A stretch of 64,000 bases of DNA from an uncultured Gammaproteobacteria bacterium (GTDB taxonomy: Bacteria; Patescibacteriota; Microgenomatia; Levybacterales; UBA12049): the NCBI GenBank assembly GCA_964507055.1, contig CAZDOJ010000001.1, positions 13,210 to 77,209 on the forward strand, in the 5' to 3' direction. Below the pieces are notes generated by a model. It saw nothing but the letters and a program-made list of their open reading frames with translations. It made no database searches and was not told the origin of the DNA. Position 1 is the stretch's first letter; each line of letters begins with the position of its first letter. Of the stretch, positions 12,556-57,279 are shown piece after piece. Made by a program: the position numbers and the translations under genes.

Positions 12556-13407
12556 CTAGAGCTGGCTTCCACCGCTGCTTCCACTTCCGCCGCCACCGCC
12601 GCCTTTATTGTGGGCGAGAACGCCATCTGCGTAGAAGTTATTATGTCCACTTACTTTCTTGAGATTATATGCCTGTACTGGACCAGGGAAATAATCCATC
12701 CTAGTAATCGCGACATATTTTCCTGAATCTTTCAATACTTTGTCTCCGACTTTAAGAGGTTTTACTTTCAATACAGCATTCTCTTGAGCTGTTTTCTCTG
12801 GAGAAATAGATTTCCAACCTTCTGATGTGTACAGTGGATGTTCATTCGTTACACCAAGAACAGTTCCATCAGCGAGTTTGACATTATAATGATGATCGCG
12901 AAGTGGGGCATCCATTTCTTGTACTTTTACTGCAACTTGCTTCTTGCCATCATACCCGATGACACTATCTCCAACTTTTACATCTTCGATATTCTTTTCA
13001 GAATAATCAGCCATTAAGATCTTTGTTCCAGCTACGAAGCATGTGCTTCCACCGCCGCCACCGCCGCCACCACCTGTTGCAGGAGGCTGAGGAGTCGGAG
13101 TTGGAGTTGGGGTTGGTGAAGGAGTCGGTGTTGGTGTAAGTGTGATGCCAGGAAAATCTTCAAGCTGGAGATTTGATTTTCCGTCAGTATCGTCACCACG
13201 TTGGATAATAACTGGTTGACTATCATCTGGGGAAGCAAACTTAGGAGCAGAATTGCCGAGCATCATAACGCCGCCGCCAATGACAATTCCTAGGAAAATG
13301 ATTGCATAGATGGTACCAGCACCTACAGCGCCACGAGATTTTTTAACCTTTAATAAAAGTGCGTTTTTAGGTTTTCGAGCAGTAGTAGTTTTCTTTTTAG
13401 CGGGCAT
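12556..13407 (-). CDS. membrane-anchored protein with PT linker and Hint (bacterial intein-like) domain flanked by poly-Gly
   Basis: TM segment (IYAIIFLGIVIGGGVMML), linker TPTPTPSPTPTPTPTPQPP, then G9-ST-CFVAGTKIL...TNEHPLYT...NFYADGVLAHN-K-G6. Confidence 0.8.
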   Translation of the reverse strand: MPAKKKTTTARKPKNALLLKVKKSRGAVGAGTIYAIIFLGIVIGGGVMMLGNSAPKFASPDDSQPVIIQRGDDTDGKSNLQLEDFPGITLTPTPTPSPTPTPTPTPQPPATGGGGGGGGGSTCFVAGTKILMADYSEKNIEDVKVGDSVIGYDGKKQVAVKVQEMDAPLRDHHYNVKLADGTVLGVTNEHPLYTSEGWKSISPEKTAQENAVLKVKPLKVGDKVLKDSGKYVAITRMDYFPGPVQAYNLKKVSGHNNFYADGVLAHNKGGGGGGSGSSGGSQL

Positions 13408-24912: not shown

Positions 24913-24991
24913 CCCATTTTTCGAACTTTGGTGTCAAGTGTTTCGCTCTATATTTGACGCTTCACAAAACTTCTTCTATAATCGCAAGATT

Positions 24992-27016: not shown

Positions 27017-27052
27017 TCTTTTATTCTTGATAAGTGCTATAATACTACTTTT

Positions 27053-36347: not shown

Positions 36348-37661
36348 ATGTCAAGACCCGAGCAAGAATCACAAGGTTTAGAACGGAAAAGACCAATAAG
36401 AGACCGTCTTAAAAATACGGTTTCAGGAATTGCGGAAAAAGGAAGAGGTTTGAAAGATTATGCTGTCGTATTTTCGCGTACAGCTCTTACTGTAGGTTTG
36501 CTTACACGCCACACATTACTTCATAGTTCTGATCGTCCTGATGGCGGATCAGAAAAGCGACCAGAAGCTTTATCCTACGCAGACCAAGCCAGACTATTAG
36601 CCGAACAAATTCACGCAAATGATCCTGTAATGACAGAATCGAATTTGGCATTCTATCCAGCAGCAGCTGTTACTGACGGTGATTATCAAATTGGTGTATC
36701 ATTCTATTCTGAGCCTTCTGCAGAAGAGGATTCAGGATCAATTTCTGTGACAATTGCTTTGGGAGCAGATCGTCCTTTGCCAGAGCGTGAATTACGATTT
36801 GATCCAGATGGAAGGTTAGAATTAGTTAATCATGGGGAATTACGAGATGCTTTAAATCGAAGAGATGAATCTGCAGAATTACAAACAGATTCTCTAACCG
36901 GAGAAGTGACACTTGAAGTTCCAGATGATGTCGATGATGCAGCTTTTCGTGAATACGCAGCAGCGTCTTCAGATAGGATACTCACCAATAATGAAGCACT
37001 CGTATATTTAGGATTTATAAAAGAACAAGTAGGCGATCGGTGGCCAGAAGATTTGGTATTACCTGATGTAACCGAGGATGGAGATTTTCCTGAAGCAATT
37101 GATGATACAAAAAGGCTGTTTACTCGAATTGCTGCTCGATTAGCGGCTCCACGTCCCGAATCAGCTGATGATCCACTATCGCCTAAGTTTGAACGAGTAA
37201 GAACAACCGAATGGATTATCTCTGAAGGCCATCGAGCAGTTCTTGATACACATACGAATGGGAATGGTGAGGTCGACGAAGTTCACCTAAAAACATATGA
37301 GAATGTTCCTACAGAATTTGGTTTTAGCTACGATGAAAGAAAGAAAGTGACTCTTCGGCCAGGAGACACAGAATATGAAGAATCAGTATATGTACATCCT
37401 GCTGACGTCTTTCATCTTACTGAAGCAAATCGAGAAGTGGCAATGGAATTAATGCAGTCATCAAGAAGAATTAGAAATCGAGAAGAACATGATCCTGCTA
37501 CAACGACTCAAATCGGGGAAGTATTTACAGTATTACAGTCCAAAGTTACGAGTTTGCGTGAACAACCTCGTCTTGATGACAATATTGATATAGAAGAACA
37601 AAATGGACATATTGATTGGGATGGACCAGATGATGATAGTGGTCCAAGAAGATCTTTGTAA
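36348..37661 (+). CDS. tail-family protein T8 (family B)
   Basis: C-terminus NGHIDWDGPDDDSGPRRSL. The N-terminus is homologous to T6. TGtTACAAT lies 9 nt before the ATG. Confidence 0.85.
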   Translation: MSRPEQESQGLERKRPIRDRLKNTVSGIAEKGRGLKDYAVVFSRTALTVGLLTRHTLLHSSDRPDGGSEKRPEALSYADQARLLAEQIHANDPVMTESNLAFYPAAAVTDGDYQIGVSFYSEPSAEEDSGSISVTIALGADRPLPERELRFDPDGRLELVNHGELRDALNRRDESAELQTDSLTGEVTLEVPDDVDDAAFREYAAASSDRILTNNEALVYLGFIKEQVGDRWPEDLVLPDVTEDGDFPEAIDDTKRLFTRIAARLAAPRPESADDPLSPKFERVRTTEWIISEGHRAVLDTHTNGNGEVDEVHLKTYENVPTEFGFSYDERKKVTLRPGDTEYEESVYVHPADVFHLTEANREVAMELMQSSRRIRNREEHDPATTTQIGEVFTVLQSKVTSLREQPRLDDNIDIEEQNGHIDWDGPDDDSGPRRSL

Positions 37662-37666
37662 TATAA

Positions 37667-38845
37667 ATGAATACTCCAGAAAATCCACGATATAAAGGAC
37701 CTGATAGATCAGGGAAAGTTGAGAGAGCTCCCCATGTTGAAACACCATTTCAAGAAGCAGTGCGTTTGGCTACAGCACTACATCGTGCAGATCCGAATCG
37801 TATCTATCAAGGATTTGGGAGGTATGACGTATTTTCAGACACGCCTGGTGTTTCAGGTGTACATGAGGTGCATGTGGATCCTTTGGATGTAGATCAGAAA
37901 GGGACGCATGGGTTCGTCTTTCCTTTCGATGAAGAAGTTGAAGGAGAACAAGTTGTCGGATCTGTACGATTTTTTATCAAAGATGGGTTGATGCATGCTG
38001 ATCCTACAAAGATTTGGGAAGCAAATGCTATGCGTGCATTAGACGAGGAGTTCGGACCCGATCATGTGGATGAGTTGGGTTTTCCTGAGCAATCTGGTGC
38101 TTCAGAGAGGTTTGTTGCGGAATCTCAAGTCCTTGCATCTGTTCAAGCGGAATGGGAGAACCATTTTCAAACAGCCGCGAGTGCACTTGCCCTTGGCTCA
38201 GTTCGAGAAGTATTAAATCAGATAAAAGCCACGTATAGTGAATTGCTTCCAAAAGAATTAGGTTTTGATGATATAGATGTATCCGCTCTCGATTATGATA
38301 GCGTCATAGCTCATGTAGGTCTAGCAGCTGAACACCTTGTGATATCAACGATACATTATAGCGAATGGCACGATGGACAAAATACCTATAATCTTACAAC
38401 GGAAAAAGATAAAACTGGAGCAGTGACAGATATTAGCTTCAAACACGCACACCGAATGGCGGATGATATGGCGGTCACGCATACTATTCGTGATTGGACA
38501 TTTACTGCTGATGGAGAATATTGTGCTGGATCGTATCAACAATTAGCTCCTTTTGCGGAGTATCTTGAAGATCCTGCTCAACTCCAAATGGTTTCGGCTC
38601 ACAACAAAACGCAGATGGACGAGCGAATCCGAGAAGCAGATCTTGGTGAAGATATTGCTGACACGCTACAAATACAAGCAGGAATTGATTTGCTGAAAGA
38701 TCCAAAACATTTTAAAATTCTCCAACCAGTACTTAATAAAGGAGATGTACTTTTTCCCGAAGAAGAATCCTTAGATCAGCGGCATGAACAGATTGATTGG
38801 AGTGGAGAGGATGATCAAGATATTGGTCCACATAGATCGTTATAA
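37667..38845 (+). CDS. tail-family protein T9 (distant family B)
   Basis: C-terminus HEQIDWSGEDDQDIGPHRSL. Lies only 5 nt after the T8 stop, so it is probably co-transcribed. Confidence 0.85.
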   Translation: MNTPENPRYKGPDRSGKVERAPHVETPFQEAVRLATALHRADPNRIYQGFGRYDVFSDTPGVSGVHEVHVDPLDVDQKGTHGFVFPFDEEVEGEQVVGSVRFFIKDGLMHADPTKIWEANAMRALDEEFGPDHVDELGFPEQSGASERFVAESQVLASVQAEWENHFQTAASALALGSVREVLNQIKATYSELLPKELGFDDIDVSALDYDSVIAHVGLAAEHLVISTIHYSEWHDGQNTYNLTTEKDKTGAVTDISFKHAHRMADDMAVTHTIRDWTFTADGEYCAGSYQQLAPFAEYLEDPAQLQMVSAHNKTQMDERIREADLGEDIADTLQIQAGIDLLKDPKHFKILQPVLNKGDVLFPEEESLDQRHEQIDWSGEDDQDIGPHRSL

Positions 38846-38846
38846 T

Positions 38847-39899
38847 ATGGTAGAAGCATACAGAAATAATAAGGAGCGTAATAAAAAACCTTTCACTATG
38901 GTACTTCTTGATCACGGTGCTGCTCGTCCTTCCGAAATAGCAGTTTGGAAAAATCATATTGTGACCCTTCTCAATAGAGATCCTTCTCATCATGGGAAAA
39001 TAGTAGTCTTCACAGAAAATGCTGCCGGCACAATCAGCAACGCTAATCGTGTGCAAAATAAAATTCGTAACGGGAAACTACCTACAAAAGCTTCCATTGA
39101 AGCAGGCCTTGAAGAGATTGCCGCAGCTGGAAGAATATTAAATGTTCCTGAAGCAGAAGCACACGCTATCGCACAAGAGGGACTTGAAGAAGGATTTGAT
39201 GGTGCAATTTTTCCCATACTTGATGATCTTCACCGGGAGCATGGAGAAAGAGTCGTTTGGATAGATGAAGCACATCCTTTATCAACGCATGAGAAAGGTA
39301 TAGCCTTCTTGGATACTGGATTTTTTATAGATCCTCCTTACGGGACGACTTCTCAATCCGAAATTGCTGATTGGTATCGTGAGAATTTTCGAAAAAACTC
39401 AGAATTTGATAGAGAGCGAGAAAATAATATAAGCCAAGCTTTGGCTGAACAGCTCGATGATCCCAATATTATTGGTGGCGTCGGGGTGATGGGATATTTC
39501 CATACCCGCGTTGTTCATAATTTGGCACGAAATGGCTATGCGGCTCGCAATGTTTTTCCAGAAAGAGAAGGAAGAAACTTTCACTTTAGTCCTAATACCT
39601 ATCTGCATAGAATGATTCATTTCTTTCCAGATCGTCAAATTACCGATGCAGATGTCCAAGATGCTTTAAGTGTAGGTCAATATACTGGGACTTTACTAAG
39701 AAGTGAAGGACGTGATCCTGCGACATTGAGTATTCAAGAAAGAAACAAAGTAGGCAATGAAATTTTGCATATCAGAGGGAAAGCACGTCAACGAGAGCTT
39801 CAGATATTTGATTCATCAGAAGCACTTGGAGATCATAATGATGAAATTGATTGGGCTGGGAATGATGAGCCTGATGAGGGACCTAAAAGGTCTCTTTAA
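38847..39899 (+). CDS. tail-family protein T10 (family A, H/E/E/H paralog)
   Basis: The MVEAYRNN start at 38847 is preferred over track 38784, which overlaps T9. Family A blocks: FTMVLLDHG, GKIVVFTENA, VGVMGYFHTRVVHNL, NVFP. C-terminus NDEIDWAGNDEPDEGPKRSL. Confidence 0.85.
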   Translation: MVEAYRNNKERNKKPFTMVLLDHGAARPSEIAVWKNHIVTLLNRDPSHHGKIVVFTENAAGTISNANRVQNKIRNGKLPTKASIEAGLEEIAAAGRILNVPEAEAHAIAQEGLEEGFDGAIFPILDDLHREHGERVVWIDEAHPLSTHEKGIAFLDTGFFIDPPYGTTSQSEIADWYRENFRKNSEFDRERENNISQALAEQLDDPNIIGGVGVMGYFHTRVVHNLARNGYAARNVFPEREGRNFHFSPNTYLHRMIHFFPDRQITDADVQDALSVGQYTGTLLRSEGRDPATLSIQERNKVGNEILHIRGKARQRELQIFDSSEALGDHNDEIDWAGNDEPDEGPKRSL

Positions 39900-39960
39900 T
39901 GGCCTATAATAGTTTTATTTTTAATCATTTCATGGTATAATCCCAAAAGACAAGCCATCC

Positions 39961-41019
39961 TTGTCCCATTTTTTTATGAATAATATTGAAGGTGCTCCCA
40001 AGAAAAGAGTAGAACATCGTGAGGTGGATCCACGAAAAAAACCTATTGATCTTTTCTTTTTACCTCATCATGAGGATATGTATCACGTGCTTGATCCATG
40101 GGAAGAAAAAATACGTAATACACTCGCAGAAAAACCTACCGGCAAACTTGTTGTTTTTACAGAACTAGCAACTGGACGAAGAGATATGAGCGATCGTGTA
40201 CGTGGGCTTGTATCCAATGGTGTTTCTCCCAGTGACGCATATGCACAAGCAATAATATCACGGTTGCGTGAAGCTGGAGATGACGGTACAGATAGTGAAC
40301 TTGAAAATATTGCGTTACGAAGTCTCTCTGGATTTGTAGGAGAATCATCCATGAGACTTGACGGAATTGTCCGTGATTTTCCTGGAAGGATAGACTGGAT
40401 AATTGAAGGTCGTCGCGATGATCAAGAATTACCTGAAGATGACGAAGATGTAAAGGCTGCGTACACATTTCTGACGACAAGAGTTGATGGAGTTCCTAGT
40501 GACGACCATATTGATATTTATCGAGAATCACTTGCAACAATTTCCCATAGCGATCGTGTGCGGGATCGGTATATCGCGGAGCAAATTGCAGAGACACTTG
40601 AAAATCCTGATACTATTGGTGTTGCTGGGTGGGTGGGCACCAAACACACAGCAATCAGTCATAAATTAAAAGCAGACGGCTATACAATTAATCGAACATT
40701 TCCACAGTTAGAGGATGGAGTATTGGTATTTGCACCGATAACAACTCTTATACGAGAAGCCGAGTATCATCCAAGGAGAGAAATTCCCAAAGAAGATATT
40801 ATCGTGACAACCGCTCTTGCCAACCCAGTTTTTGATTTCGATCCGAATGCATCCGATCAGCAATTTTTTAAGAATGCACATACATGGATGACAGAGAAAA
40901 AAGCAGAACTCACGTTACAAGAAGAGCTTGGCAGTGATCAACCATTATCAGAAATTGATCCGTCCGTTAACTGGGATGGGACAGAGGATCCTGATTCCGG
41001 TCCACGTCAGAGCCTTTAA
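39961..41019 (+). CDS. tail-family protein T11 (family A)
   Basis: The TTG start gives MSHFF, homologous to MSHFE of T12; the ATG at 39976 is an alternative. Blocks LFFLPHH, GKLVVFTELA, FPGRI, AGWVGTKHTAISHKL. C-terminus VNWDGTEDPDSGPRQSL. Confidence 0.8.
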   Translation: MSHFFMNNIEGAPKKRVEHREVDPRKKPIDLFFLPHHEDMYHVLDPWEEKIRNTLAEKPTGKLVVFTELATGRRDMSDRVRGLVSNGVSPSDAYAQAIISRLREAGDDGTDSELENIALRSLSGFVGESSMRLDGIVRDFPGRIDWIIEGRRDDQELPEDDEDVKAAYTFLTTRVDGVPSDDHIDIYRESLATISHSDRVRDRYIAEQIAETLENPDTIGVAGWVGTKHTAISHKLKADGYTINRTFPQLEDGVLVFAPITTLIREAEYHPRREIPKEDIIVTTALANPVFDFDPNASDQQFFKNAHTWMTEKKAELTLQEELGSDQPLSEIDPSVNWDGTEDPDSGPRQSL

Positions 41020-41054
41020 TTGCTTTTTGTGCCCAATTTGTTACAATACCGCCT

Positions 41055-42089
41055 ATGTCACACTTTGAAAGAGAACCTATAAAAAGAACAGAACGACTTG
41101 ATCCAAGGCAGAAGCCGACGACACTTTTTTTTATCAACCATAATGAGGCTGATCATACGCCACTTGTACCTTGGAAAAATCACCTTGAAAACCGTTTGCA
41201 GGACTTACCGAAAGGGAAAAAGATTGCGGTATTCACTGAAAGTGTTATCACAAGTACTGAAGTCGCTCAAGCCACGCAGGAACGAGTTGCCGATGGTATG
41301 AGTCCAACTGAAGCATATGTACATTCTGTATATGATCAATTGCTTCCAGGTATGCCACGCACTGACAAAACTCTGGAGCTTGTACATGATCATGTCCGAG
41401 CTCAGAATTCTTTTATAGCAGCATCTCGGGATATACTTGATGAATTAGCCCAACGCTATCCCGGAATCCATTGGATTGAAGAATCACATGATGCAACAGA
41501 GCGTGACCGTATCGTAGAGAGTGCAAAAGATTTTTTTACCATGCTTGATGTTCGAACTGATCCTCAAAGCCAAACATTGGATGAAAAAAAAGAGGTGATA
41601 GAGAATTTTGGAGCAAGGCAGCAGATGCGTGATCAAAGCATTGCAGGACTTATTACTGGAGCACTTGAAGAAGATGATGTTGTAGAAAGTATTGGTTGGG
41701 TTGGAGCGGATCATACAGGTATTTCTCATGCTTTAGTGCGAGATGGATATACAGCAAATAGAGTCTTCCCACATAGGCAAGGAGGGACCTTCTATTTTGA
41801 ACCATTAACTACATTGTGGAAAACGGCAAACATTCGAGAACTTACCGATGAAGAAGTAGAAGTATCACTTCAAGCAGACCGAAACCTCGCAGTTCCATTG
41901 AGTGTTGGAAGACAAGCTGATATTCAAGCCGCACATCGGATGATTAAAGTAGCAACCCAGCTGAGACAGCGAAGTAATCAAAGGCAAGAACCACCATCAA
42001 TAGATTCAAGTGAAACTTCTTTGCCTCAAACTGCTATTGACTGGGCTAGTGAAGAAGAAGGTCCCACAGAACCACGAAGAACTTTATAG
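41055..42089 (+). CDS. tail-family protein T12 (family A)
   Basis: LFFINHN, KIAVFTES, YPGIHWIEESH, IGWVGADHTGISHAL. C-terminus TAIDWASEEEGPTEPRRTL. TGtTACAAT lies 7 nt before the ATG. Confidence 0.85.
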   Translation: MSHFEREPIKRTERLDPRQKPTTLFFINHNEADHTPLVPWKNHLENRLQDLPKGKKIAVFTESVITSTEVAQATQERVADGMSPTEAYVHSVYDQLLPGMPRTDKTLELVHDHVRAQNSFIAASRDILDELAQRYPGIHWIEESHDATERDRIVESAKDFFTMLDVRTDPQSQTLDEKKEVIENFGARQQMRDQSIAGLITGALEEDDVVESIGWVGADHTGISHALVRDGYTANRVFPHRQGGTFYFEPLTTLWKTANIRELTDEEVEVSLQADRNLAVPLSVGRQADIQAAHRMIKVATQLRQRSNQRQEPPSIDSSETSLPQTAIDWASEEEGPTEPRRTL

Positions 42090-42116
42090 TCAAAATGAAT
42101 TTGGTATAATCCCCAC

Positions 42117-43289
42117 ATGGTAGAACATGTTGATTCCTCTCGAACCGGAAAAAAACCACGCAAACCTTTTACACAATTTCTTGTCTCTCATAGTGACGAT
42201 AAACTTGATCAGCTCTCTGGATGGGCTAATGCACTTCAGCGATCGCTTGAAGAAAATCCAGATAAGAAAGTTGTAGTTTTTACAGAAAATGCTAAGGGAG
42301 TTAAAGCAGATTCAGAAAAACTAACAGAAAAGGTTCTGGAAGGTATGCTGCCATCTGATGCATATGCTGCTGTAGCAACAGAAAATATGAGTTCATACTT
42401 TGCAAAGAATAGTACTCGTGTAGGTGTTACAAGACAACGTCGGATTATTAAAAAAGAGGCAGAAAAAGCTAGAGATCAGATTGGAGGAGGATTTTTTGGT
42501 AGATCATTTCAACTTCTTGATGCTATTGCAGCTGAATATCCGGGCAGAATAGTATTCATAAGTGAATGGGAACCAGAGCTCGCAAATCAATTAGATACAC
42601 AACAGAAAACTCGAGAATTAGGTATCGGTTTTCGAAGAGAATTGGGATTGCAGACTCGGGCTGAAAAAGCTGCTTCTGCACGAGAGTTCTTTCTATTCCA
42701 GGCAGATAATGCAAATGCCAGAGAAGAGTCTGCTGCACAAGTTCTGACGGATGCCTTAGACCGCGATGACGTTGCTGCAGGAGTTGGCTGGATGGGAGCC
42801 GCACATACTGGACTTGTACATCGATTGCAGGCAAATCATGATGTACGCATGATTATGCCAGGAAAGGTTGGAAGAGATTTTGTATATACGCCTGAGAATG
42901 CACTTATTCGTGAACGACTATTTCATCCGGATCGTGATATTGATTTGGATGAAGCATACGAGGCTGTACAGATAGAAAGAAGAGTAAGAAGACAGTATCC
43001 AATTTTCCATTTGGGGATTGTTTTAGAAAGTAAATGGGGTATAAATCCATTTCATAATAAGCAGAGAAAAGCTGAAATTGATCAAGAAATTAGTAGAAGA
43101 GCTCAGGTTGAATTCCAAGCTTTTCGAGCAGGCCGAAATGAGTATGCCCAAGATCAAAACACAATAGTAGCTCTTCCCAATGCATCAGCGATTGTACAAG
43201 ACAATGAAGTGTCACTAAGAGATATGAACTCTGGTCTTGATTGGGATGGTTCAGACGGTCCAGATCAAGATTATCGAAAAACATTGTAA
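42117..43289 (+). CDS. tail-family protein T13 (family A)
   Basis: QFLVSHS, KVVVFTENA, LPSDAY, YPGRIVFISEWE, VGWMGAAHTGLVHRL. C-terminus GLDWDGSDGPDQDYRKTL. TGgTATAAT lies 6 nt before the ATG. Confidence 0.85.
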   Translation: MVEHVDSSRTGKKPRKPFTQFLVSHSDDKLDQLSGWANALQRSLEENPDKKVVVFTENAKGVKADSEKLTEKVLEGMLPSDAYAAVATENMSSYFAKNSTRVGVTRQRRIIKKEAEKARDQIGGGFFGRSFQLLDAIAAEYPGRIVFISEWEPELANQLDTQQKTRELGIGFRRELGLQTRAEKAASAREFFLFQADNANAREESAAQVLTDALDRDDVAAGVGWMGAAHTGLVHRLQANHDVRMIMPGKVGRDFVYTPENALIRERLFHPDRDIDLDEAYEAVQIERRVRRQYPIFHLGIVLESKWGINPFHNKQRKAEIDQEISRRAQVEFQAFRAGRNEYAQDQNTIVALPNASAIVQDNEVSLRDMNSGLDWDGSDGPDQDYRKTL

Positions 43290-43319
43290 TTATTATTTAA
43301 AAAGAATATAATCCCGTCA

Positions 43320-44513
43320 ATGACTGAACGATCTGCAAAATCACCTGCTCAGGTGGAAGGGGCCGTGGCTCCAGATGGCAAGAAAAAACCTGTTTCCCTT
43401 TTCTTTGTTTCGCATCATCCTGCACAAGGATACCAGCTCGACGGATGGAGAAGAAAGATAGAAGATATCCTTGATTCTACTCCAAAAGGAAAAGTTGTAG
43501 TTTTTACAGAGAATGCTGGGCAAAGCCATAGGCATTCCAATCTTACTCGACAAAATGTTGCTAATGGTGATCTACCATCAGATGCCGTTGAAAAAAGTTT
43601 CCGAGAACTAAATGATCATTATCGAAGTCATGGGGTTGAATGGGCCTTGAGTGATGAGAGAGTAGCAGAACTTCTTGAGAAAGGAACAAAAACATTTACT
43701 GGCATATCGACAGCTATACTTGATGATATTGCTGCTCGTTATCCTGGAAGAATAGATCTCGTTGAGGAATGGGAAAGTCGCAAAGGACATCAACTTGAAC
43801 ATGATCTCTACAAAAAGGATACTCCTCAGCGAAATACAACCCTAAGTGCTGTTATGTCTTTATTTCCTCAAGGACGTAGAATTTTGGCTGCTGAGGGTCG
43901 AGAAAAATTGGCATCCGAAGCTGCAATATACCGTGAACGTGAGGAAACATCTGCACGAATTATTAGTGATGCATTAGAACAACCCGATACTATTGCGGCG
44001 GTTGGCTGGATGGGTGCAATACATACTGGACTGAGCCATGAGCTCACTCGAGAGGGTCATCCAGTAATGCGTGTATTTCCAGAGCGAGTAGATGGAGAGC
44101 CATATCTTTTTCCGCCAGGACATACGCTCCTTCGTGCCAAGCGTTTTGATCCGGATAAAGAATTAACTGATGATGAGATCGTAACGGCTGAGCAGGCTGA
44201 TCTGAAGGGAATGCATAAACAATTTGGTGATCCACGGATCAATCCAATTGGTTTTTTTATGCGGTATAAGTCTCAAAAAGAAGAAGTACGCTCAGGAAAA
44301 GCACAGGCTTCTATTCGATATGCTCAAGAATGGTATAGACGAAAAATGGGCAAACAGGCATCAAATGAAGAGCAAGTAAGTACAAATAGACAACTTCAAG
44401 AATCAGTTACGGTTGCCCCAGATATAGCAGAGCCCCCACTTGGCGATCTGAATTCCGATATAGATTGGGGAGAGTCTGGACCCGATGCAAATGGACCAAA
44501 ACGGTCACTCTAA
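43320..44513 (+). CDS. tail-family protein T14 (family A)
   Basis: LFFVSHH, GKVVVFTENA, LPSDAV, YPGRIDLVEEWE, VGWMGAIHTGLSHEL. C-terminus SDIDWGESGPDANGPKRSL. Confidence 0.85.
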   Translation: MTERSAKSPAQVEGAVAPDGKKKPVSLFFVSHHPAQGYQLDGWRRKIEDILDSTPKGKVVVFTENAGQSHRHSNLTRQNVANGDLPSDAVEKSFRELNDHYRSHGVEWALSDERVAELLEKGTKTFTGISTAILDDIAARYPGRIDLVEEWESRKGHQLEHDLYKKDTPQRNTTLSAVMSLFPQGRRILAAEGREKLASEAAIYREREETSARIISDALEQPDTIAAVGWMGAIHTGLSHELTREGHPVMRVFPERVDGEPYLFPPGHTLLRAKRFDPDKELTDDEIVTAEQADLKGMHKQFGDPRINPIGFFMRYKSQKEEVRSGKAQASIRYAQEWYRRKMGKQASNEEQVSTNRQLQESVTVAPDIAEPPLGDLNSDIDWGESGPDANGPKRSL

Positions 44514-44514
44514 G

Positions 44515-44550
44515 CCTGTAATAGTTAAATAGTATATTTTTTGTTATAAT
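44515..44550 (+). promoter_or_regulatory. island junction promoter: CCTGTAATAG-N20-TATAAT (T15)
   Basis: Box at 44515-44524 and TGtTATAAT at 44542-44550. ATG follows 6 nt later. Confidence 0.55.
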
Positions 44551-44556
44551 CCTTCG

Positions 44557-46401
44557 ATGGTAGAACAATCAAGAAGAATTGCACCACAGGGAAGTCGTAC
44601 TTTTCGTGGTACAGATGTGTCCGCAATGCATGCAGAAATGCAAGGTATCCTTACGGCTTCGAGAGATAATGATCCGCATGCCTCCACAATAGACTCATAT
44701 AGAAAGATTGCTGATGCACTTCCTCTACGGGTTCCAGCTGCTACATACCAAGCCGTTAGTGAATCTATCAATAATCCTGATCCCGTGATTTCAAAAGCTG
44801 GGAAGGAAGTTTTTACTTGGCTAAATATAAAGACTGTAATTTCAGTTGCAGAAAGATATTCGGGAGAAGGTTTGGGAGATGTTGAAGATTTCGCTCAGGA
44901 AGGGGTTACTATCCTTTATGAAAATGTAGACACAATTCATCAGAGGGCAGATAGTTCTATGTATACTTATCGTTTGGCTGAAGAGGCTCTGACTAATAGT
45001 ATTGCTCGTGAGCATGGATTTAGTGTTACTATGAGCGAAAATAGAGTTGCATTACCTATTGGTCAGACCGTGACTGAATTATTTGATAATGCTCCCTTAG
45101 GGGTTGATGAAGTAGGGCTTGAAAGGCAAGCAGTAGTATTAGCACAGAAATTTGGAATTACTGAAGATGCTGCATTTAAATATCTCTCAAGGAGGAGTGC
45201 ATTGCAGCCAATTCACGAAAGTAAGATGCAGCCAGAACGTGAGGATACAGAGGTAATAGAAGATATTATGGTTTTAGATGAGCTTCTGAGGATGCTTCCT
45301 GAAAGGAATGAACAAATGCTGCGGATGAGATTTGGGAATGGTTTTACACTAGATGAAATTGCCCAACGCTACAACCTGGTTCCTGAACGTGCTCGTCAAA
45401 TAATTGCTAAAACAATTAAATCATTACAGCATGAGCAAGTTATCGATTTTGTTACAGGGGGAGTTAAACCCGCATCTCGAAGTCAGCGAATAATGACATC
45501 AGATGGAGAAGAGGGGCAGGATATTGAAGATGTCATCCGCGAAAAGCGTTTGGCTGGATATGGTGAATCTGGATCAGGTTCGTGGGCTGAATCTAGAAAG
45601 GAATTGGCTAATATTGCACATGCATTCTTAGCTGAGCCGCAAATTGGGTATCCGGAAATTGCAAATAGGCTTGGAATTACAGTAGATAAAGTAATTTATA
45701 GTGTACAAACTCTTCGTTCAAAATATTTGTTACCAGATGCTAATGCAGGTAAGCATGCAAAAATAACTCCCGATGATGGCAACAGAACATTGCAGGAAAG
45801 ACTACATTCACGATATGAAAGACAAGAATCCGAGATTGTAGTTCCGCCAATTCAGGGGGAAAGAGAAACAAGTACTATCCCAGCAATTGAGGACACTTCT
45901 TCTAAATCGAAACCACCATCAGAAAGAACACTTCGTGCTTTAATTTTGCAAAAACAAGCGTGGAAGTTACAGCAAGAAGACGGAAAAACGTACGATGAGA
46001 TTTCTGAAATACTCAATGTTAGTCTAGGATCCATACGAAGATATCTTCAAAACGAACGGCGAGACCTTGGTCTTGCAAATCAGACGAATGTCGGACGTCC
46101 TAAAGATCCTGAGGTGCAAGCTAGAAGAGCCGTTTTGGCTGAGAGAATTAAAGCTGGTGAGCCTCTTAGAGTTCATGGATTTGCTAAAGAGTTTGGTACT
46201 ACTGTAGGTACTATAAATTTTGATATACGTGAAATTTTGAGTGGATATCATACTTCTTCATCAGAGACAACAATATTTTCTCAAGAAGAACATGCTTCGC
46301 AACAGCCTAAACTTGAGGAGCCAGAGGTTACGATCGCTGATGTAGCTGTCGATTGGGATGGTACCGATGATCCTGAAGCAGGTCCTCAACGAACTTTATA
46401 A
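44557..46401 (+). CDS. tail-family protein T15: sigma-70-family N-terminal half + extra HTH modules
   Basis: Region 2-like NIKTVISVAERYSGEGLGDVEDFAQEGVTILYENVDT. Region 4.2-like LPERNEQMLRMRFGNGFTLDEIAQRYNLVPERARQIIAKTIKSL. Further HTH-like segments are present. C-terminus VAVDWDGTDDPEAGPQRTL. Confidence 0.8.
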   Translation: MVEQSRRIAPQGSRTFRGTDVSAMHAEMQGILTASRDNDPHASTIDSYRKIADALPLRVPAATYQAVSESINNPDPVISKAGKEVFTWLNIKTVISVAERYSGEGLGDVEDFAQEGVTILYENVDTIHQRADSSMYTYRLAEEALTNSIAREHGFSVTMSENRVALPIGQTVTELFDNAPLGVDEVGLERQAVVLAQKFGITEDAAFKYLSRRSALQPIHESKMQPEREDTEVIEDIMVLDELLRMLPERNEQMLRMRFGNGFTLDEIAQRYNLVPERARQIIAKTIKSLQHEQVIDFVTGGVKPASRSQRIMTSDGEEGQDIEDVIREKRLAGYGESGSGSWAESRKELANIAHAFLAEPQIGYPEIANRLGITVDKVIYSVQTLRSKYLLPDANAGKHAKITPDDGNRTLQERLHSRYERQESEIVVPPIQGERETSTIPAIEDTSSKSKPPSERTLRALILQKQAWKLQQEDGKTYDEISEILNVSLGSIRRYLQNERRDLGLANQTNVGRPKDPEVQARRAVLAERIKAGEPLRVHGFAKEFGTTVGTINFDIREILSGYHTSSSETTIFSQEEHASQQPKLEEPEVTIADVAVDWDGTDDPEAGPQRTL

Positions 46402-46442
46402 TTTATCTTTCCGCCTCATCCTATGGTATAATCTTGCCCAAT

Positions 46443-48695
46443 ATGATTGAACGGAGACCTCAAATGAAATCGGCAGTCTTTACCGGAGATGTTGATGGCA
46501 TTGATCCTTATGGTACATTGGCAGAATATGTAAAAGTTATTGATACTGTGGCTGCGATTCGCACTCCAGAAGATCGTATTCAGGCAAGACATGTATTACG
46601 TCGGATGATTATTGGATTTCCTCCTCACATTTCTCCCGCAGCTTTCATTAAAAATGAACATGCAGAGCTTGCTCTTACAGATGAAGAGCGAAGGATACAA
46701 GAACAAGATACAATTGATAGAAAAGCCAAACAAGAAGCAATTGATGCAGATATTGCTTCAGGTACATATCCTTGGCAAGCACATGCACGGCATAATGAAG
46801 AAAGCAGAGTCAATACACATCTCATTGGGTTTTACGGAGATGAAGCTTTACAACCACTCTATGGACCTCCTTATTTTGAATCAACTCACGGACAAAAAGA
46901 AGTCCATTTAATACATTTGGATATCAAGCCAGTTGAGGGAGAAGTGCGAAAGAGTGCACATTGGGATGCGTTACCAGAAGATCTTCGAGAACAGTTTGAG
47001 GGAGGATCAATCCCAATCACCGGAACGACTGACCTTTATGCATTAACAGATGAGGAATTAGACAACCTTGCAGTGTCCGAAGATCCATTCAAAATGCAAA
47101 AGCATATAAAAAAGAAACTTGCTCAAGCGGATGATGGATATTATGTTTTGTATTATAGTGATTTCCGCAATCCAGGAGGGAGAACTGGTGTCCTCATGCA
47201 ATCAAGGGATGGAGATATGCAACCTGTGACCACGAAAATTGGTGATGATGAATTTCTCATTGAAGCCAAATCGATAGGGACAAAATATGGTGGATTTGGA
47301 GGAAAGCATCGTCGTCAAAGTGGAAATGATGTCATTACGGGTGGGGGGACTGCTAGAGAATCCGTACGTGAAATTGAGCGCTTGGAAGAGACTGAATTTC
47401 ATGATGGTCCTCAACCAGTTGGTGCTATAACATTTCGCAACGAGGAAGGTGAAGATCAAGGTGTACTGCTTCGACTTACACCGTCAACTGTTCGTGCTGC
47501 TTTTACTATGCCAGATGCATATCCGAAAATTGATTCCCCTGATATTGCAAAGCGGGTTTTCGATATGTATACACAATTATTGGCTGATCAAACGCTTGGA
47601 GAAAATCCTTATATTATAGGTGCTCAATCTTCACATACGGAAAATATCCTCATTTGGAAAGATACGTATGGCTATACAGACTCAGCAGATAAAGCAGCTT
47701 TTCATGATGGTTCAGTGGTGAGTTATGAGAAGGACTTCAAGTTGCGTACGCCTAAAGAGTTTCTCATAGAATACATTGGGCTCGTAGGATATATTCCTGG
47801 AAGGAGCAAGGTAGAAAAACAATACTTTATTGATGGGCTTACTCGAGCTTTTGCCTCTCATGGCAAAAATATTGACCTCCATCCTGAAGATTATGATTTT
47901 GAGATTGCCGAAAAGCTTTGGGCAGAAGGGGGAATTGCATATTCTGTATTTAAGGCTAGAAGAGAACGAGGATTTGTGGCAGATGGAGTACTTAAAGATT
48001 TTACTGATTATGCTGCAAAGGTGAGAGATATATTTGGCGAAAAAGCAATGGGTTCTGAAGAATCATTTAAGCAGAGGATGGAAGATATGGTTGCAACTGT
48101 GAAGAAACAGCTTCTTGAGAAAAGAAATAAAACCAGTGACATTGACGCCCAAAGAGAAATCAATAGTATATTAGCAGAACTCGGAGGAAATAATTTTTTG
48201 AATGGAAGTAATGGATATGATCTCATTTCGAATACGTTTTCACAAAATCATGGAGAAACACAGGAAGATAATGAGCTTATTCAAAACGCTGAAGATATTA
48301 AGACGATACAACAGCTATTTTTCATACATGAATTATATTTCGATCATGAAAGTGATGTAGTATCTGGTGCGTTGAAAAGTTGCCCTGAAGAAGAACGTGA
48401 AAATGTTGAAGATGCAAAAGCGGAGGTTGGTCGAAAACTAGATGAAGCATTTATACTTCGCACGCCAGAAGGACTTTATCGAGCTCTAACAGATGCGGAA
48501 TATGTGCGAGAGTTGATAACAATGGAGGTATATTCACAAGGCTCAGAATTATCTACAGATATTGAAGCTCATCCCGAACAAGTGATCTTCGATCCACGAC
48601 AATATGGATCATCGACTGAGTTTTTTTTAGCTGATGCCCAGATAGACTGGGCTGGAATAGAAGATCCTGATCCTGGATCACAACGAACGCTTTAG
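46443..48695 (+). CDS. tail-family protein T16 (750 aa, unknown)
   Basis: The ATG at 46443 lies 10 nt after TGgTATAAT (46424-46432); the track TTG at 46434 abuts the -10. C-terminus AQIDWAGIEDPDPGSQRTL. Confidence 0.85.
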   Translation: MIERRPQMKSAVFTGDVDGIDPYGTLAEYVKVIDTVAAIRTPEDRIQARHVLRRMIIGFPPHISPAAFIKNEHAELALTDEERRIQEQDTIDRKAKQEAIDADIASGTYPWQAHARHNEESRVNTHLIGFYGDEALQPLYGPPYFESTHGQKEVHLIHLDIKPVEGEVRKSAHWDALPEDLREQFEGGSIPITGTTDLYALTDEELDNLAVSEDPFKMQKHIKKKLAQADDGYYVLYYSDFRNPGGRTGVLMQSRDGDMQPVTTKIGDDEFLIEAKSIGTKYGGFGGKHRRQSGNDVITGGGTARESVREIERLEETEFHDGPQPVGAITFRNEEGEDQGVLLRLTPSTVRAAFTMPDAYPKIDSPDIAKRVFDMYTQLLADQTLGENPYIIGAQSSHTENILIWKDTYGYTDSADKAAFHDGSVVSYEKDFKLRTPKEFLIEYIGLVGYIPGRSKVEKQYFIDGLTRAFASHGKNIDLHPEDYDFEIAEKLWAEGGIAYSVFKARRERGFVADGVLKDFTDYAAKVRDIFGEKAMGSEESFKQRMEDMVATVKKQLLEKRNKTSDIDAQREINSILAELGGNNFLNGSNGYDLISNTFSQNHGETQEDNELIQNAEDIKTIQQLFFIHELYFDHESDVVSGALKSCPEEERENVEDAKAEVGRKLDEAFILRTPEGLYRALTDAEYVRELITMEVYSQGSELSTDIEAHPEQVIFDPRQYGSSTEFFLADAQIDWAGIEDPDPGSQRTL

Positions 48696-48731
48696 AAATG
48701 TCAGGTTTGTTGAGCTAAATTTTGCTATAAT
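48693..48731 (+). promoter_or_regulatory. junction repeat TAGAAATGTCAGGTT + TGcTATAAT (T17)
   Basis: A 15-mer at 48693-48707 that includes the T16 stop codon and is identical to 50766-50780. The -10 element is at 48723-48731. Confidence 0.55.
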
Positions 48732-48737
48732 CCCCGA

Positions 48738-50768
48738 ATGAAAGAACTACTCAGAGCGAGAAAATCATTTTTGAGAGGAGAACCCCTCCGTCATAATCCT
48801 GGTGATGATGATCGGACCCAGGATAAATTTGCTAACGTACCACATGGTGGTCCCCAAAAAGAAGGAAGATTACCAGGAGAAAGAATTAGTGATCAACAGC
48901 GTGATGAGGTGCTATCCGGAGTTCTCAATAGTGAAGTAAAGATGCTCGTTTTGGCGGGAATGGTTCTGGACCCTGAAGTATACACTGCTGGAGATCTCGA
49001 TAGTATGATACGGGATATGCAACGTGGACAAAAAGGTTGGAATTTAAGTAGCAACATAGCATTCGGGTACTGTCTCAATTCTTTCGATGGGATTGGACTA
49101 GTCGCAAAAAGTGAACCTGTAAACGATCGGACGACCTTGGGATTTAAAGCAACACAAAGAGGCAAAGACACGTTACCAGTTATTGGACATCTCTTGGATT
49201 TCTCACTGAAACATCCAGATATAGCTTTGCGGCGTGTCTTTTCAACAACTGCTTCTCCTTCAAAGGCCACGGCTGAAGGCGAACAAGCTGGAGACTATAA
49301 AGTCCGTGCTCCCAAAAGACGATTTCGTATTCTTAAAGCACTCGTCGAGAACGAGGGGCCACTACGTGAGTCAGATATGCGAAAGCTTGTAAATAATTCA
49401 TCTGTTGAGTTGCATCTGGAAAGCCTTCATAACATTGGGCTTATAACTTATGAGAACACAAGAGTTGGTGCAGATCATATCACCTATACAGTTATTCCAG
49501 ATGCTATCTCTGATGTTCATGCTCTGCCTTCTATTCCAACGTCAACCGATAACCAGCTGCAATTACGTGCAGCATATATTACCTCAAAACTTTCGGGTGA
49601 AATTTCTCCAAAAGATGTATATGAACGATTAGTCGCTTTATTCCCACAATATAAAGAACGGGATCCTCGTGGTACAGAAAAGGTAATAAATAGAAAGCTC
49701 CATCACATGTCAATGCATGGATTTATAGAAAAAGGGAAACGCACAATAGACCGAAAAACAGATATCTCAGTAACTGAAGAACAGCGAGAAACTATAGCTG
49801 AGATCGTGGGAATTATTGATGCATTTCAGGCAGGAGATCCGACATTCTTAGCAGAAGGAGAACAGAAAGCTCGACGAATTATCCAAAATCCTGAGGCAGC
49901 AGCTACTCTTATGCGTAAGGCTCAGGAAAGTTCGCATACAGCTCTTGCTCTTGGTCAAGCAGAATTGAAGAGAAGATTAGTGACTTTTGCTGAACAAAGC
50001 GAAGGTCCGATAACAAGTGTGCTTGCTGCTGAATATCTGGAGCATCGTGTGGGTAAAAGTTATGCTGGTGCGATATTACGAGAACTTGCAAGAGAAGGAA
50101 AGATACAGGTTGAATCACGGGGTCAAGTTATAAGATATGGTCCTGTCGCTCCGCAGGAACAAGAGATCCCTTTGCCTGAAGATAAGCGAGGTTTAGAACA
50201 AGTTGCAGTTACGGTAAATGCGGAGATTAAGCCATTTGCTGATGGTATCAAGTTGCTTCTTGCTGCATATGCTTCACATACCGATCCTCAGTCAGAATCA
50301 GCTCTTGAAGTAATGGATCAAATTCGTTCTGTACGAGCACTGCCTGAATATGCACATCTCATTTCGAAACGTGATCAGATAGAACAACGGCTTGCTGTTA
50401 TTGCATCAGAAGAGGCTGGTATCGAGTTAGCGAATGAAGAACCCGTTGTAGAAACAGAAGTTGAGATGCAAGAAAATACGGAGGTTGTTCTGAAACCCCA
50501 AAATAGTCCAAAATCGAAGACAGTTGAGCTTCGTGAGCGAATTCAAGCCTTTAAGGATTTAGGAGTATCTGATTCTAGCGAAATTGCACAATGGATGGGT
50601 GTAAGTAGATCTACCATCACAAGACATATTCGGCAGATGCAAGCACAAGAAACACAAGAAGAACCCATACTTCCTGCAGTTGAAGATCAGCCATTAAGTG
50701 CATTAGATGCTGGGATTGATTGGAGTGGAGATGATGATCCTGATCCCGGTTTACAAAGAACACTTTAG
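48738..50768 (+). CDS. tail-family protein T17 (family C, winged-helix/HTH-rich)
   Basis: The first ~130 aa are homologous to T18. HTH-like segment SEIAQWMGVSRSTITRHIRQM. C-terminus AGIDWSGDDDPDPGLQRTL. Confidence 0.85.
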   Translation: MKELLRARKSFLRGEPLRHNPGDDDRTQDKFANVPHGGPQKEGRLPGERISDQQRDEVLSGVLNSEVKMLVLAGMVLDPEVYTAGDLDSMIRDMQRGQKGWNLSSNIAFGYCLNSFDGIGLVAKSEPVNDRTTLGFKATQRGKDTLPVIGHLLDFSLKHPDIALRRVFSTTASPSKATAEGEQAGDYKVRAPKRRFRILKALVENEGPLRESDMRKLVNNSSVELHLESLHNIGLITYENTRVGADHITYTVIPDAISDVHALPSIPTSTDNQLQLRAAYITSKLSGEISPKDVYERLVALFPQYKERDPRGTEKVINRKLHHMSMHGFIEKGKRTIDRKTDISVTEEQRETIAEIVGIIDAFQAGDPTFLAEGEQKARRIIQNPEAAATLMRKAQESSHTALALGQAELKRRLVTFAEQSEGPITSVLAAEYLEHRVGKSYAGAILRELAREGKIQVESRGQVIRYGPVAPQEQEIPLPEDKRGLEQVAVTVNAEIKPFADGIKLLLAAYASHTDPQSESALEVMDQIRSVRALPEYAHLISKRDQIEQRLAVIASEEAGIELANEEPVVETEVEMQENTEVVLKPQNSPKSKTVELRERIQAFKDLGVSDSSEIAQWMGVSRSTITRHIRQMQAQETQEEPILPAVEDQPLSALDAGIDWSGDDDPDPGLQRTL

Positions 50769-50804
50769 AAATGTCAGGTTCACTACAATGAAGTTTGTTA
50801 TAAT
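50766..50804 (+). promoter_or_regulatory. junction repeat TAGAAATGTCAGGTT + TGtTATAAT (T18)
   Basis: A 15-mer at 50766-50780 that includes the T17 stop codon. The -10 element is at 50796-50804, with the ATG 6 nt later. Confidence 0.55.
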
Positions 50805-50810
50805 CCCCAA

Positions 50811-53528: not shown

Positions 53529-53534
53529 TAGCAG

Positions 53535-53570
53535 CCTGTAGTAGAATTTTGAGCCTAAATTTGGTATAAT
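53535..53570 (+). promoter_or_regulatory. island junction promoter: CCTGTAGTAG-N20-TATAAT (T19)
   Basis: Box at 53535-53544 and TGgTATAAT at 53562-53570. ATG follows 6 nt later. Confidence 0.55.
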
Positions 53571-53576
53571 CCGCAA

Positions 53577-56027: not shown

Positions 56028-56078
56028 CTTGAATATAAGGCTAAATTCAACTATAATACCCCGATACATTAGATAACT

Positions 56079-57275
56079 ATGACTGAGACACGAAAACCAA
56101 GAGAACCCTTCAAATTGAGTAAGCCAGTGAACCCAGCATACAGAGCAGCTTCAAAAAGATGGTCAGACCATCCAACGGCTGTAGACTTCACCAATTATGC
56201 TGACTACCACTGGGTTGAGAAATTTAATGAACATTCCAGAGCTGGAAATAAAATTGCAGCATTAGGATGGTTGCTGGCAGGACAAACCCGAAAGTCATTT
56301 ATGACCCGATATGATATCGTAGGTCGAAATGAAGTTGCTCCTCGGATGAGTGATGCTCAAAAGCAGACAATCAGTCGTTTTGAAACAGTCCAAAAAGTAA
56401 CAAATATCATAAAACGTGCACTTGAAGATAGTGAGACAAAAAAGCGTAGACCAAAGGAGCCACTTAGACATAGAATTGCTCGGTATAAGGATGTTTTTGA
56501 TTCAGCGAGAGCAAAAAGAAGAGAGAGAATCGATAATGGAGGAGGACTTTTTAATACGGCATTTTCTACATTTGTTCCAGATAAAGGAATTGAAAATGCA
56601 TATAAGAGTAAAGTAGCACGGCAATATGGACCATCTGATGAGGAGTCTGCTCAACAAGGGGTGGCTGAAAAAGAACCTAAAAACACTTTTGATATAGGTC
56701 ACGGATTGACCGTAGACTTTGATCAAGCTCGAGATGCTGGACTTGATGCCGTAGAAGGTAGATTGGGGCCGATAACTGGAAATGAGACTAACCAGGAACT
56801 AAATGCTCGAAAAGCAATCGCTGCAGAAGCAAGAAAAAAGGATATTCAAGGCCAATTAGATAAACAGCGTGCAGATTTTGATGCTGGACGTGAAAGTCAG
56901 GGGCTTGATCCAGTAGATCATGCAGGAGAACCAGATGCTGATGCTGCAATAGCAAAATACCTCGAAGCAAAAAAGACAACGTCGGAGACTCCGCAAGCTT
57001 CTGTACCGGATATGAAGGGTGTAAAAATAACAATGCCAGGATTTCTCAAAAGAGATCCTGATCGAAATAAAACCTTTGAGGAACGTACACTTGCAGAAGT
57101 TGCTAAACGTGTTGCAGAAGCCGAAGCTGCGAAACAGGCTTCAGTTTCCCAAAATCGAAATGGTATGCCTGAGTTATCAGATGATCAAAATGTGCCGCTA
57201 TCGACTCTGGATGAAAGTGTACAATGGGATGGCTCTGACAGTCCACGTGGGGTCGATGGGCCAAAGATGCGATAA
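56079..57275 (+). CDS. tail-family protein T20 (basic/acidic, degenerate tail)
   Basis: C-terminus ESVQWDGSDSPRGVDGPKMR. The W-x-G, acidic and GP-K elements are kept, but the terminal [ST]-L is missing. TATAAT lies 21 nt before the ATG. Confidence 0.8.
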   Translation: MTETRKPREPFKLSKPVNPAYRAASKRWSDHPTAVDFTNYADYHWVEKFNEHSRAGNKIAALGWLLAGQTRKSFMTRYDIVGRNEVAPRMSDAQKQTISRFETVQKVTNIIKRALEDSETKKRRPKEPLRHRIARYKDVFDSARAKRRERIDNGGGLFNTAFSTFVPDKGIENAYKSKVARQYGPSDEESAQQGVAEKEPKNTFDIGHGLTVDFDQARDAGLDAVEGRLGPITGNETNQELNARKAIAAEARKKDIQGQLDKQRADFDAGRESQGLDPVDHAGEPDADAAIAKYLEAKKTTSETPQASVPDMKGVKITMPGFLKRDPDRNKTFEERTLAEVAKRVAEAEAAKQASVSQNRNGMPELSDDQNVPLSTLDESVQWDGSDSPRGVDGPKMR

Positions 57276-57279
57276 CTTC

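Follow-up and report, generated by a model that had tools for sequence, protein, structure and literature searches.

The tandem genes T10 to T14, which lie in a 64,000-nucleotide (nt) stretch of contig CAZDOJ010000001.1 (positions 13,210 to 77,209; hereafter the window) from an uncultured bacterium assigned to the Levybacterales of the Patescibacteriota, encode five members of a protein family, here named family A, that is predicted to be a very divergent branch of the superfamily of TIKI-type hydrolases. These genes belong to an island whose products share a short C-terminal tail and which adjoins a gene for a VirD4/TraG-type coupling protein. Taken as a whole, the data make us lean, with modest confidence, towards the view that the family A proteins are divergent TIKI-type hydrolases carried as cargo of an effector island that depends on this coupling protein. 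As for its parts, the predicted fold and hydrolase function are held with good confidence, and export with moderate confidence.

Results

Family A consists of strongly diverged paralogs

The seven family members claimed for the window in the earlier note were all recovered at their positions by alignment and by BLASTP (coordinates in Table 1). The genes from T10 to T14 are contiguous on the plus strand and, together with the N-terminal part of the T19 product and with T23, their products were aligned across the entire cores, with identities of 20-29% to the first sequence. When compared pairwise by BLASTP with the last 25 residues cut off, the seven copies showed identities of 22-36% and E values that ranged from 1e-5, in pairs that all include T23, to 2e-44 for the pair T11/T12; T10 matched the other copies with E values of 1e-19 to 8e-31 and the cut T23 with 5e-6. 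By these comparisons the seven copies are paralogs, with a similarity far beyond chance. Two further copies (P0029 and P0017) are encoded directly past the end of the window, and the genome holds at least nine family A copies.

In a neighbour-joining tree, T10 to T14, T19 and the two downstream copies form one clade of eight that is specific to the lineage of the window, and T23 pairs with its ortholog from another organism (locus L005, described below). Because of this placement, T23 appears to be an old, coupling-protein-linked member of the family and the tandem array a lineage-specific yet deep expansion. The high divergence between copies, read earlier as the sign of an old or fast-evolving expansion, fits both the 22-36% identity and the existence of a positional ortholog of T23 in another lineage. 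A recent tandem duplication was ruled out by these same low identities.

Invariant residues in a broad family

No match to the seven copies was found in Pfam, NCBIfam or the PDB sequences, in line with the earlier claim of a new family, and profiles of seven and of 96 family sequences returned nothing meaningful from the same three collections. An exhaustive HMMER search with the seven-sequence profile against 1.84 billion representative proteins detected 216 clusters of homologs at E <= 1e-3 and 141 at E <= 1e-10, mostly of about 330-350 amino acids (aa). The long members carry no Pfam domains, with one exception that has GNAT domains. Members of the family that lack a tail are single genes in ordinary chromosomal neighbourhoods, and the cargo proteins may accordingly derive from an enzyme of the housekeeping type.

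The motifs listed in the earlier note were all found in the copies, and the residues invariant among the seven are H, E, E, R, G, G and H. An alignment of 96 family sequences, which are 17-34% identical to T14 (whose numbering is used here), showed H32, E64, E150, R207, G232 and H235 to be invariant in 96 of 96. The conserved H/E/E/H pattern reported before thus holds as far as these four residues are concerned; the second histidine of its H-x-x-x-H element is absent from T23 and is not invariant family-wide, and the invariant arginine had gone unlisted. Conservation peaks at the core strands and at the helix that carries R207, and it is lowest at residues 153-182 and low in the helical insert of residues 67-143, a pattern that fits a fixed chemistry with varied substrate recognition. 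The family A profile (residues ~59-182; window positions 43320-44204) also matched the designed pentatricopeptide-repeat protein 6een (E 9e-8), but the match, whose per-domain E is about 0.15, is read as a repeat-like helical-hairpin composition of the insert between strands 2 and 3 and not as homology.

Predicted fold and relation to the TIKI superfamily

T14 was modelled with AlphaFold2 (AF2) from the seven-sequence alignment (predicted local distance difference test, pLDDT, 83.8; predicted template modelling score, pTM, 0.81) and from the 96-sequence alignment (pLDDT 91.7, pTM 0.88). In the model, the family A domain is an alpha/beta unit of about 280 aa, with a parallel-sheet core and flanking helices, that can be superimposed on solved members of the superfamily. 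Foldseek ranked ChaN first (probability 0.90, E 0.067), and in a structure search with the better model ChaN, the top match, was followed by HopBA1 (9.4), the EreA-like structures 2rad (9.2) and 2qgm (9.0) and EreC (8.5) as the next four; RRSP scored 8.0. The structures matched are the set that was grouped as the TIKI superfamily in the description of RRSP (PMC6254334). The kinship with Tiki, TraB, ChaN and erythromycin esterases that the earlier note had guessed at proved right, with the TraB profile link given below pointing the same way.

TIKI enzymes have a 2His/2Glu site and an essential arginine in a parallel-sheet core (PMC6254334). In the family A model, the core strands span residues 25-30, 58-63, 145-149 and 224-232; H32, E64, E150 and H235 each lie 1-3 residues past a strand, and Arg207 is on a long helix. 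From these positions after the four core strands we infer that the invariant H/E residues cluster in three dimensions, and the H/E/E/R/H arrangement of the model corresponds to the 2His/2Glu(+Arg) hydrolytic site of the superfamily. Because the invariant residues show this layout, the family A copies are predicted to be hydrolases that act on peptide or ester bonds. The fold gives no ground for the metal dependence proposed earlier, since neither RRSP nor the Ere enzymes need metal for catalysis: the superfamily holds both the metal-dependent Tiki and the metal-independent RRSP, and in EreB/Bcr136 the metal serves structure formation, not activity (PMC6254334).

Superfamily members that are not enzymes do exist, PMT being one (PMC6254334), and the family A proteins might likewise use the fold to bind a ligand or a host protein without catalysis, in the manner of ChaN or PMT-C1. 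This appears quite improbable, as His, Glu, Glu, Arg and His are kept without exception in 96 sequences of such low identity to T14, these residues are modelled where active TIKI enzymes have their catalytic residues, and PMT has itself lost the 2His/2Glu motif (PMC6254334).

At the sequence level, a profile of 23 TraB/PrgY sequences, built from PrgY of plasmid pCF10, was aligned by hhalign with the 96-sequence family A profile with a probability of 79.6% (E 1.5e-5). The aligned block, ER[DE]..[IL]A..I....VG..H..G, includes G232xxH235 and places R207 on TraB R191 and H235 on TraB H215, both of which are invariant in their own family. In a greedy alignment H32 fell, with low confidence, on the histidine of the TraB GTAH motif (H21). 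Among the Pfam matches of the 96 homologs, TraB_PrgY_gumN (PF01963; best E 0.024, three members) and Cofac_haem_bdg (PF04187; 0.013, one member) stayed below threshold, and no erythromycin-esterase model was among the Pfam matches listed for family A. Because these matches stay below threshold, family A is best described, on the strength of its predicted structure, as a branch of the TIKI/TraB/erythromycin-esterase/ChaN superfamily that is very divergent, has not been classified before and is separate from PF01963 and PF04187.

The array lies in an island of tailed proteins beside a coupling protein

Positions 24938-58797 hold 21 open reading frames (ORFs) with a minimum length of 100 aa, and in 20 of them the last residues ahead of the stop codon have the form [IV]DWxGxxDPDxGPxR[ST]L. 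A less strict stretch, ..[PS]L...[IL][DN].., comes before this tail in most cases. The remaining ORF (56079-57275, 398 aa) has a degenerate tail that ends in ...DGPKMR, not in R[ST]L, and that was matched weakly by a hidden Markov model (HMM) of the tail, with an E value of 3.5e-3. The tail is some 30-40 aa long, with about 17 well-conserved residues; it is hydrophilic and contains no hydrophobic stretch. It was found on none of the 25 housekeeping ORFs upstream of the island. The tail HMM was trained on 18 island tails, its informative part being the lack of matches elsewhere; against 704 six-frame fragments it matched 20 ORFs, all of them in the island and 19 of the 20 at the exact C-terminus. 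Its match in 56079 stops 10 residues short of the end, and the tail of 27053, which the HMM missed, is recognisable by eye. A stop-to-stop fragment of 123 aa (33308-33679) with a weak tail (E 1e-3) was also seen and may be a gene remnant. Beyond the window the island continues with seven more tail-bearing genes (L006, 10001-21140), to give at least 28 in total. The tandem-family description in the earlier note was thus correct but omitted the shared tail, the adjacent coupling ATPase and the larger island, in which family A is the largest cargo family.

The tails are 63% identical at codon positions 1 and 2 and 45% identical at position 3; because the former are more alike than the latter, the tail appears to be conserved as a peptide and not as DNA. 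A recent homogenisation of the tails at the DNA level was ruled out by the same figures. A role as Sec-dependent surface sorting signal was also ruled out, as the tail has no hydrophobic stretch and a hydropathy scan detected a signal peptide in none of the 21 island ORFs of the window, in which one possible hydrophobic segment was found (in 33755). No earlier description of such tails was found in the literature.

The coupling protein, whose gene is transcribed divergently from T23, has as its best NCBIfam match a CD1115-family VirD4-like model (4.6e-20, below the curated cut-off), from a family of monoderm conjugative elements. Its ATPase domain covers residues ~680-1150, with the Walker A motif GPTGQGKS. 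The protein is unusually long, with an N-terminal extension of about 650 aa, and it bears no tail. Neither this protein nor relatives of it were found in the GTDB r232 representatives (two scans with alignments) or in Joint Genome Institute (JGI) metagenome contigs (two scans).

The proximity of family A to a coupling protein could also be read in terms of PrgY. PrgY is located in a conjugation control locus, TraB/PrgY is the sole family with a sequence-level link to family A, and T23 is kept beside the coupling protein in two lineages; family A could accordingly process or neutralise a peptide signal and so control the adjacent conjugation-type machinery, with no action on a host. We regard such a role as highly improbable, given that PrgY is a membrane protein and family A has no membrane segment, that nine diverged and tailed copies per genome are ill-suited to a single regulatory role, and that no relaxase or pheromone-type gene was recognised in the island.

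Tail types are specific to lineages

The same layout was found in a different organism (L005), with a helix-turn-helix (HTH) protein, other genes, a 495-aa gene and the coupling protein gene on the minus strand, a family A gene and more. The coupling proteins of L005 and of the window are 34% identical by BLASTP and 38% identical in the alignment, in both cases over the ATPase domain. Every ORF of L005 ends in another shared tail, EP.VG.S...SI..QE......KGK[ST]K. In a third organism (L011/L015) there is a run of 18 complete genes, of which 17 share the ending [VI]F.[RK]YG[LIV]...E[IV][DE]E, and a fourth type of tail, D.DRD...RD[DE]R, is present on other family A homologs; a contig with this fourth type carries HTH proteins and, at the contig end, a gene on the minus strand that encodes over 1174 aa. 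The window type of tail was detected in another sample as well (L016). In total, homologs from the same families of cargo carry four types of tail, each specific to its lineage (L005, L011/L015, L016, P0009-P0129).

When the proteins of the compared loci were clustered without their tails, the cargo families were seen to bear the tail of their own lineage, with family A (16 members), the HTH proteins and the 505-aa protein represented in three lineages and the sigma-like proteins in two. T23 (P0002) and its positional ortholog in L005 (P0003) are 46% identical over residues 14-487, and their similarity ends about 40 residues before the C-termini, where the tails differ. A tail swapped as a whole between lineages, on orthologous bodies, is the pattern that would be expected of a signal co-evolving with a dedicated receptor.

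The protein of about 500 aa is kept in three lineages, always on the minus strand (window 57280-58797, L005 4305-5792, L011 15081-16517), and in two of the three its gene directly follows that of the coupling protein, in the same orientation. An adaptor and a core substrate are both conceivable roles for it.

Annotation of the island and of the window

The features are listed in Table 1. For T10, the longest ORF starts at 38784 and overlaps the preceding gene, so the start at 38847 is the sensible choice. The public gene call for T11 (P0005) has 347 aa, which implies an ATG start at 39976. The whole T19 gene (53577-56027) encodes 816 aa, in which the family A domain is followed by an unannotated extension of about 500 aa and the tail.

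Table 1. Features of the window (positions counted from its first letter).
Feature	Positions	Strand	Description	Evidence
T10	38847..39899	+	family A paralog, 350 aa; TIKI-like core and C-terminal tail IDWAGNDEPDEGPKRSL	ORF list, alignment, BLASTP
T11	39961..41019	+	family A paralog, 352 aa from TTG; tail VNWDGTEDPDSGPRQSL	alignment, BLASTP
T12	41055..42089	+	family A paralog, 344 aa; tail IDWASEEEGPTEPRRTL	alignment, BLASTP
T13	42117..43289	+	family A paralog, 390 aa; tail LDWDGSDGPDQDYRKTL	alignment, BLASTP
T14	43320..44513	+	family A paralog, 397 aa, modelled copy; core residues ~23-295; tail IDWGESGPDANGPKRSL	
T19, family A domain	53577..54470	+	N-terminal ~298 aa	P0006; profile positions 1-289 on residues 1-298
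T23	62698..64000	+	family A member truncated at the window end; 527 aa when complete	P0002
Tail of T10	39846-39896	+		
Tail of T11	40966-41016	+		
Tail of T12	42036-42086	+		
Tail of T13	43236-43286	+		
Tail of T14	44460..44510	+	example tail, last 17 codons	tail alignment, column profile
Tail-bearing island	24938..58797		21 consecutive ORFs; continues past the window	
Coupling protein	58799..62551	-	VirD4/TraG-type, 1250 aa	Pfam T4SS-DNA_transf 5.4e-29, TraG-D_C, TrwB_AAD_bind
505-aa protein	57280..58797	-	tail-bearing, no known domain; directly downstream of the coupling protein, same strand	
Sigma/HTH proteins	44557-46401, 48738-50768, 50811-53528		tail-bearing	sigma-70 regions 2 and 4 (TIGR02937, 3e-24) or multiple HTH domains
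Oxidoreductase	27053-28978		flavin adenine dinucleotide (FAD)/pyridine-nucleotide-disulphide type, tail-bearing; variant tail WDIEAGPEDQDPPKKTL	Pyr_redox_3 3.8e-10
TATAAT box of T12	41042-41047	+	gap of 7 nt to start	
TATAAT box of T13	42105..42110	+	TGG before; 6 nt before start	
TATAAT box of T14	43307-43312	+	gap of 7 nt to start	
Further TATAAT boxes	44545-44550, 48726-48731, 50799-50804, 53565-53570			

Among the other genes of the island, 48738-50768 and 50811-53528 encode paralogs that are 40% identical, and L005 and L011 have homologs of the sigma/HTH proteins that bear the other types of tail. The oxidoreductase is, sigma/HTH proteins aside, the sole island protein with a recognisable enzyme domain.

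Most island genes have a TATAAT box of their own, usually with TG upstream, that ends 6-9 nt before the start codon, a placement whose chance occurrence was roughly estimated from base composition at about 1% per gene. As no Shine-Dalgarno motif was seen at these genes and the box lies so close to the start, one leaderless transcript per gene is implied. A generic sigma-70 promoter scan showed no enrichment (9 found vs. 13.7 expected), and the promoter signal appears to be a positional -10 box only, not a -35/-10 pair. A similar TATAAT arrangement is present at the housekeeping genes 16938, 19686 and 22831.

Elsewhere in the window, two large minus-strand genes (582-4812 and 11594-13407) encode proteins with VWA and SdrD-B-like domains and dockerin-like ends, D.N.D..VN..DYNLF; their neighbours are a VWA protein and a protein that has a Hint domain and a Gly-rich C-terminus, and the group is probably cell-surface machinery. 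Nucleotide-salvage genes duplicated side by side, two dCTP-deaminase-like and two thymidylate-kinase-like, occupy 4950-7524 and are followed by ThyA and SHMT at 8353-11525. No Rfam match to RNA genes was found in the window. Of six housekeeping proteins looked up by exact match in a protein collection clustered at 90% identity, five form clusters of their own and one is not represented.

Discussion

In the reading that we favour, the His-Glu pair of family A would activate water, with hydrolysis of a peptide or an ester bond. The family A domain is joined to the tail of ~30-40 aa common to the genes of the island, and this tail may act as a functional export signal, recognised by the coupling ATPase, which would pass the tailed proteins on to a type IV secretion channel and thereby into the cell of a host or target. 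The family A copies and the other tailed proteins of the island are, in this mechanism, probably exported into another cell; since the same tail is borne by sigma-70-like and HTH proteins, the recipient is probably a bacterium. The clade of eight copies may represent the lineage-specific diversification of one effector type, in which fixed catalytic residues combined with variable helical inserts would give rise to different substrate specificities. A more far-reaching version is put forward only tentatively: the tails of about 40 aa would be modular, lineage-specific address labels read by an anchor-less VirD4-like ATPase, and the island of at least 28 genes would comprise, self-labelled, all the effectors of a host-dependent bacterium with a small genome, with nine TIKI-like hydrolases and several sigma-70/HTH proteins injected to degrade or reprogram its bacterial host.

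A number of observations weigh against cargo hydrolases exported through a coupling protein. With respect to the fold, superfamily membership rests on predicted structures, on motif logic and on one local profile alignment, the confident alignment with TraB being restricted to the C-terminal half; even in the greedy alignment E64 was not aligned to TraB E45. No sequence-level match in Pfam or NCBIfam passed a curated threshold, and ChaN, the top structural match, is a haem-binding protein and not an enzyme. With respect to export, a hydropathy scan predicted no membrane segment in the coupling protein, and its L005 homolog (1349 aa) is likewise long and without a predicted transmembrane segment. 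Neither VirB4 nor VirB6 nor VirB8 was seen in the window or in the 10 kb beyond it, and adjacency to the coupling protein was found in only two lineages, plus one contig. Moreover, the coupling protein has been reported to be non-essential in the one genetically tested patescibacterium (Quinonero-Coronel et al.).

The lack of channel genes within reach and of a membrane anchor, together with the presence of the tail on sigma-70-like and HTH proteins, which are normally cytoplasmic regulators, and the resemblance of untagged members to ordinary chromosomal genes, would also suit TIKI-fold hydrolases that act inside the producer. The tail would in that case be a tag for regulated proteolysis, for docking to a scaffold or compartment, or for recognition by the 505-aa neighbour. 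We judge this rather unlikely: the tail is restricted to one island, which in two lineages includes a VirD4-type ATPase, from one lineage to the next the entire tail changes on cargo bodies that remain orthologous, and the island showed no recognisable gene for a protease, shell or scaffold.

Were the tailed proteins exported, the consequences would reach beyond family A, and the context of the island outweighs the family itself in importance. Reviews up to the end of 2025 hold type IV secretion to be essential for the growth of ultra-small monoderm episymbionts on their host and leave the substrates unnamed; likewise, reviews and a survey of patescibacterial type IV systems consider these essential for epibiotic growth, name no substrates or signals and describe coupling proteins as often distant from virB4. 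If the tail is an export signal, effectors could be listed by pattern search in any genome of these lineages, the signal could be probed with reporter fusions, and the co-evolution of signal and receptor could be traced across lineages, which would open the cargo translocated by type IV systems in ultra-small episymbionts to direct experiment. The sigma/HTH proteins, if exported, would be injected transcription factors, and sigma-factor-like cargo would imply direct rewiring of the transcription of the bacterial host. As for the hydrolases, a nine-fold amplification of a new branch of the fold in a 1.3-Mb genome would point to a major host-directed activity, because there are known cases of TIKI-fold hydrolases that are delivered as toxins (RRSP, HopBA1).

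Among the closest known systems is RRSP (DUF5) of the Vibrio vulnificus MARTX toxin, a TIKI-family endopeptidase of Ras/Rap1 (5w6l) that has, as family A does in the model, a 2His/2Glu set and an essential arginine at strand ends (PMC6254334). RRSP is a hydrolase delivered as an effector into another cell, as we infer for family A. However, no sequence similarity is detectable between the two, and the second glutamate is on a different strand, being E150 after strand 3 in family A and part of E3900-x-H3902 in RRSP. Furthermore, RRSP is a domain of a giant autoprocessing toxin, has a membrane-localisation lobe and enters eukaryotic cells, whereas the family A proteins are stand-alone, with a short tail, and are encoded beside a type IV coupling protein. 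HopBA1 of Pseudomonas syringae (5t09), also without sequence similarity to family A, is a single-copy type III effector with an N-terminal signal and a plant target. The TraB/PrgY/GumN family (PF01963) shares with family A the order beta-His / beta-Glu in the N-terminal half; family A differs in a helical insert of about 80 aa between strands 2 and 3 and in the island tail, and it lacks the C-terminal membrane domain of PrgY. The erythromycin esterases EreA/B/C and Bcr135/136 (6xcq, 2rad, 2qgm) show no sequence similarity to family A, and the Ere enzymes are larger (~400 aa), act on known macrolide esters and are not exported effectors. ChaN of Campylobacter (2g5g; PF04187) is a Sec-exported haem-binding lipoprotein, whereas family A has no signal peptide and possesses the full set of catalytic-type residues.

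With regard to the tail, C-terminal signals are known from type IV effectors, such as the XVIPCD of the Xanthomonas X-Tfe toxins, the BID domain plus basic tail of Bartonella and the E-block of Legionella and Coxiella. All of these are read by a VirD4-type coupling protein and are found on many unrelated cargo proteins. The island tail differs from them in being short, nearly identical on every cargo protein and swapped wholesale between related lineages, and the cargo genes of the island form one contiguous block around the coupling protein, whereas those with XVIPCD, BID or E-block signals are scattered.

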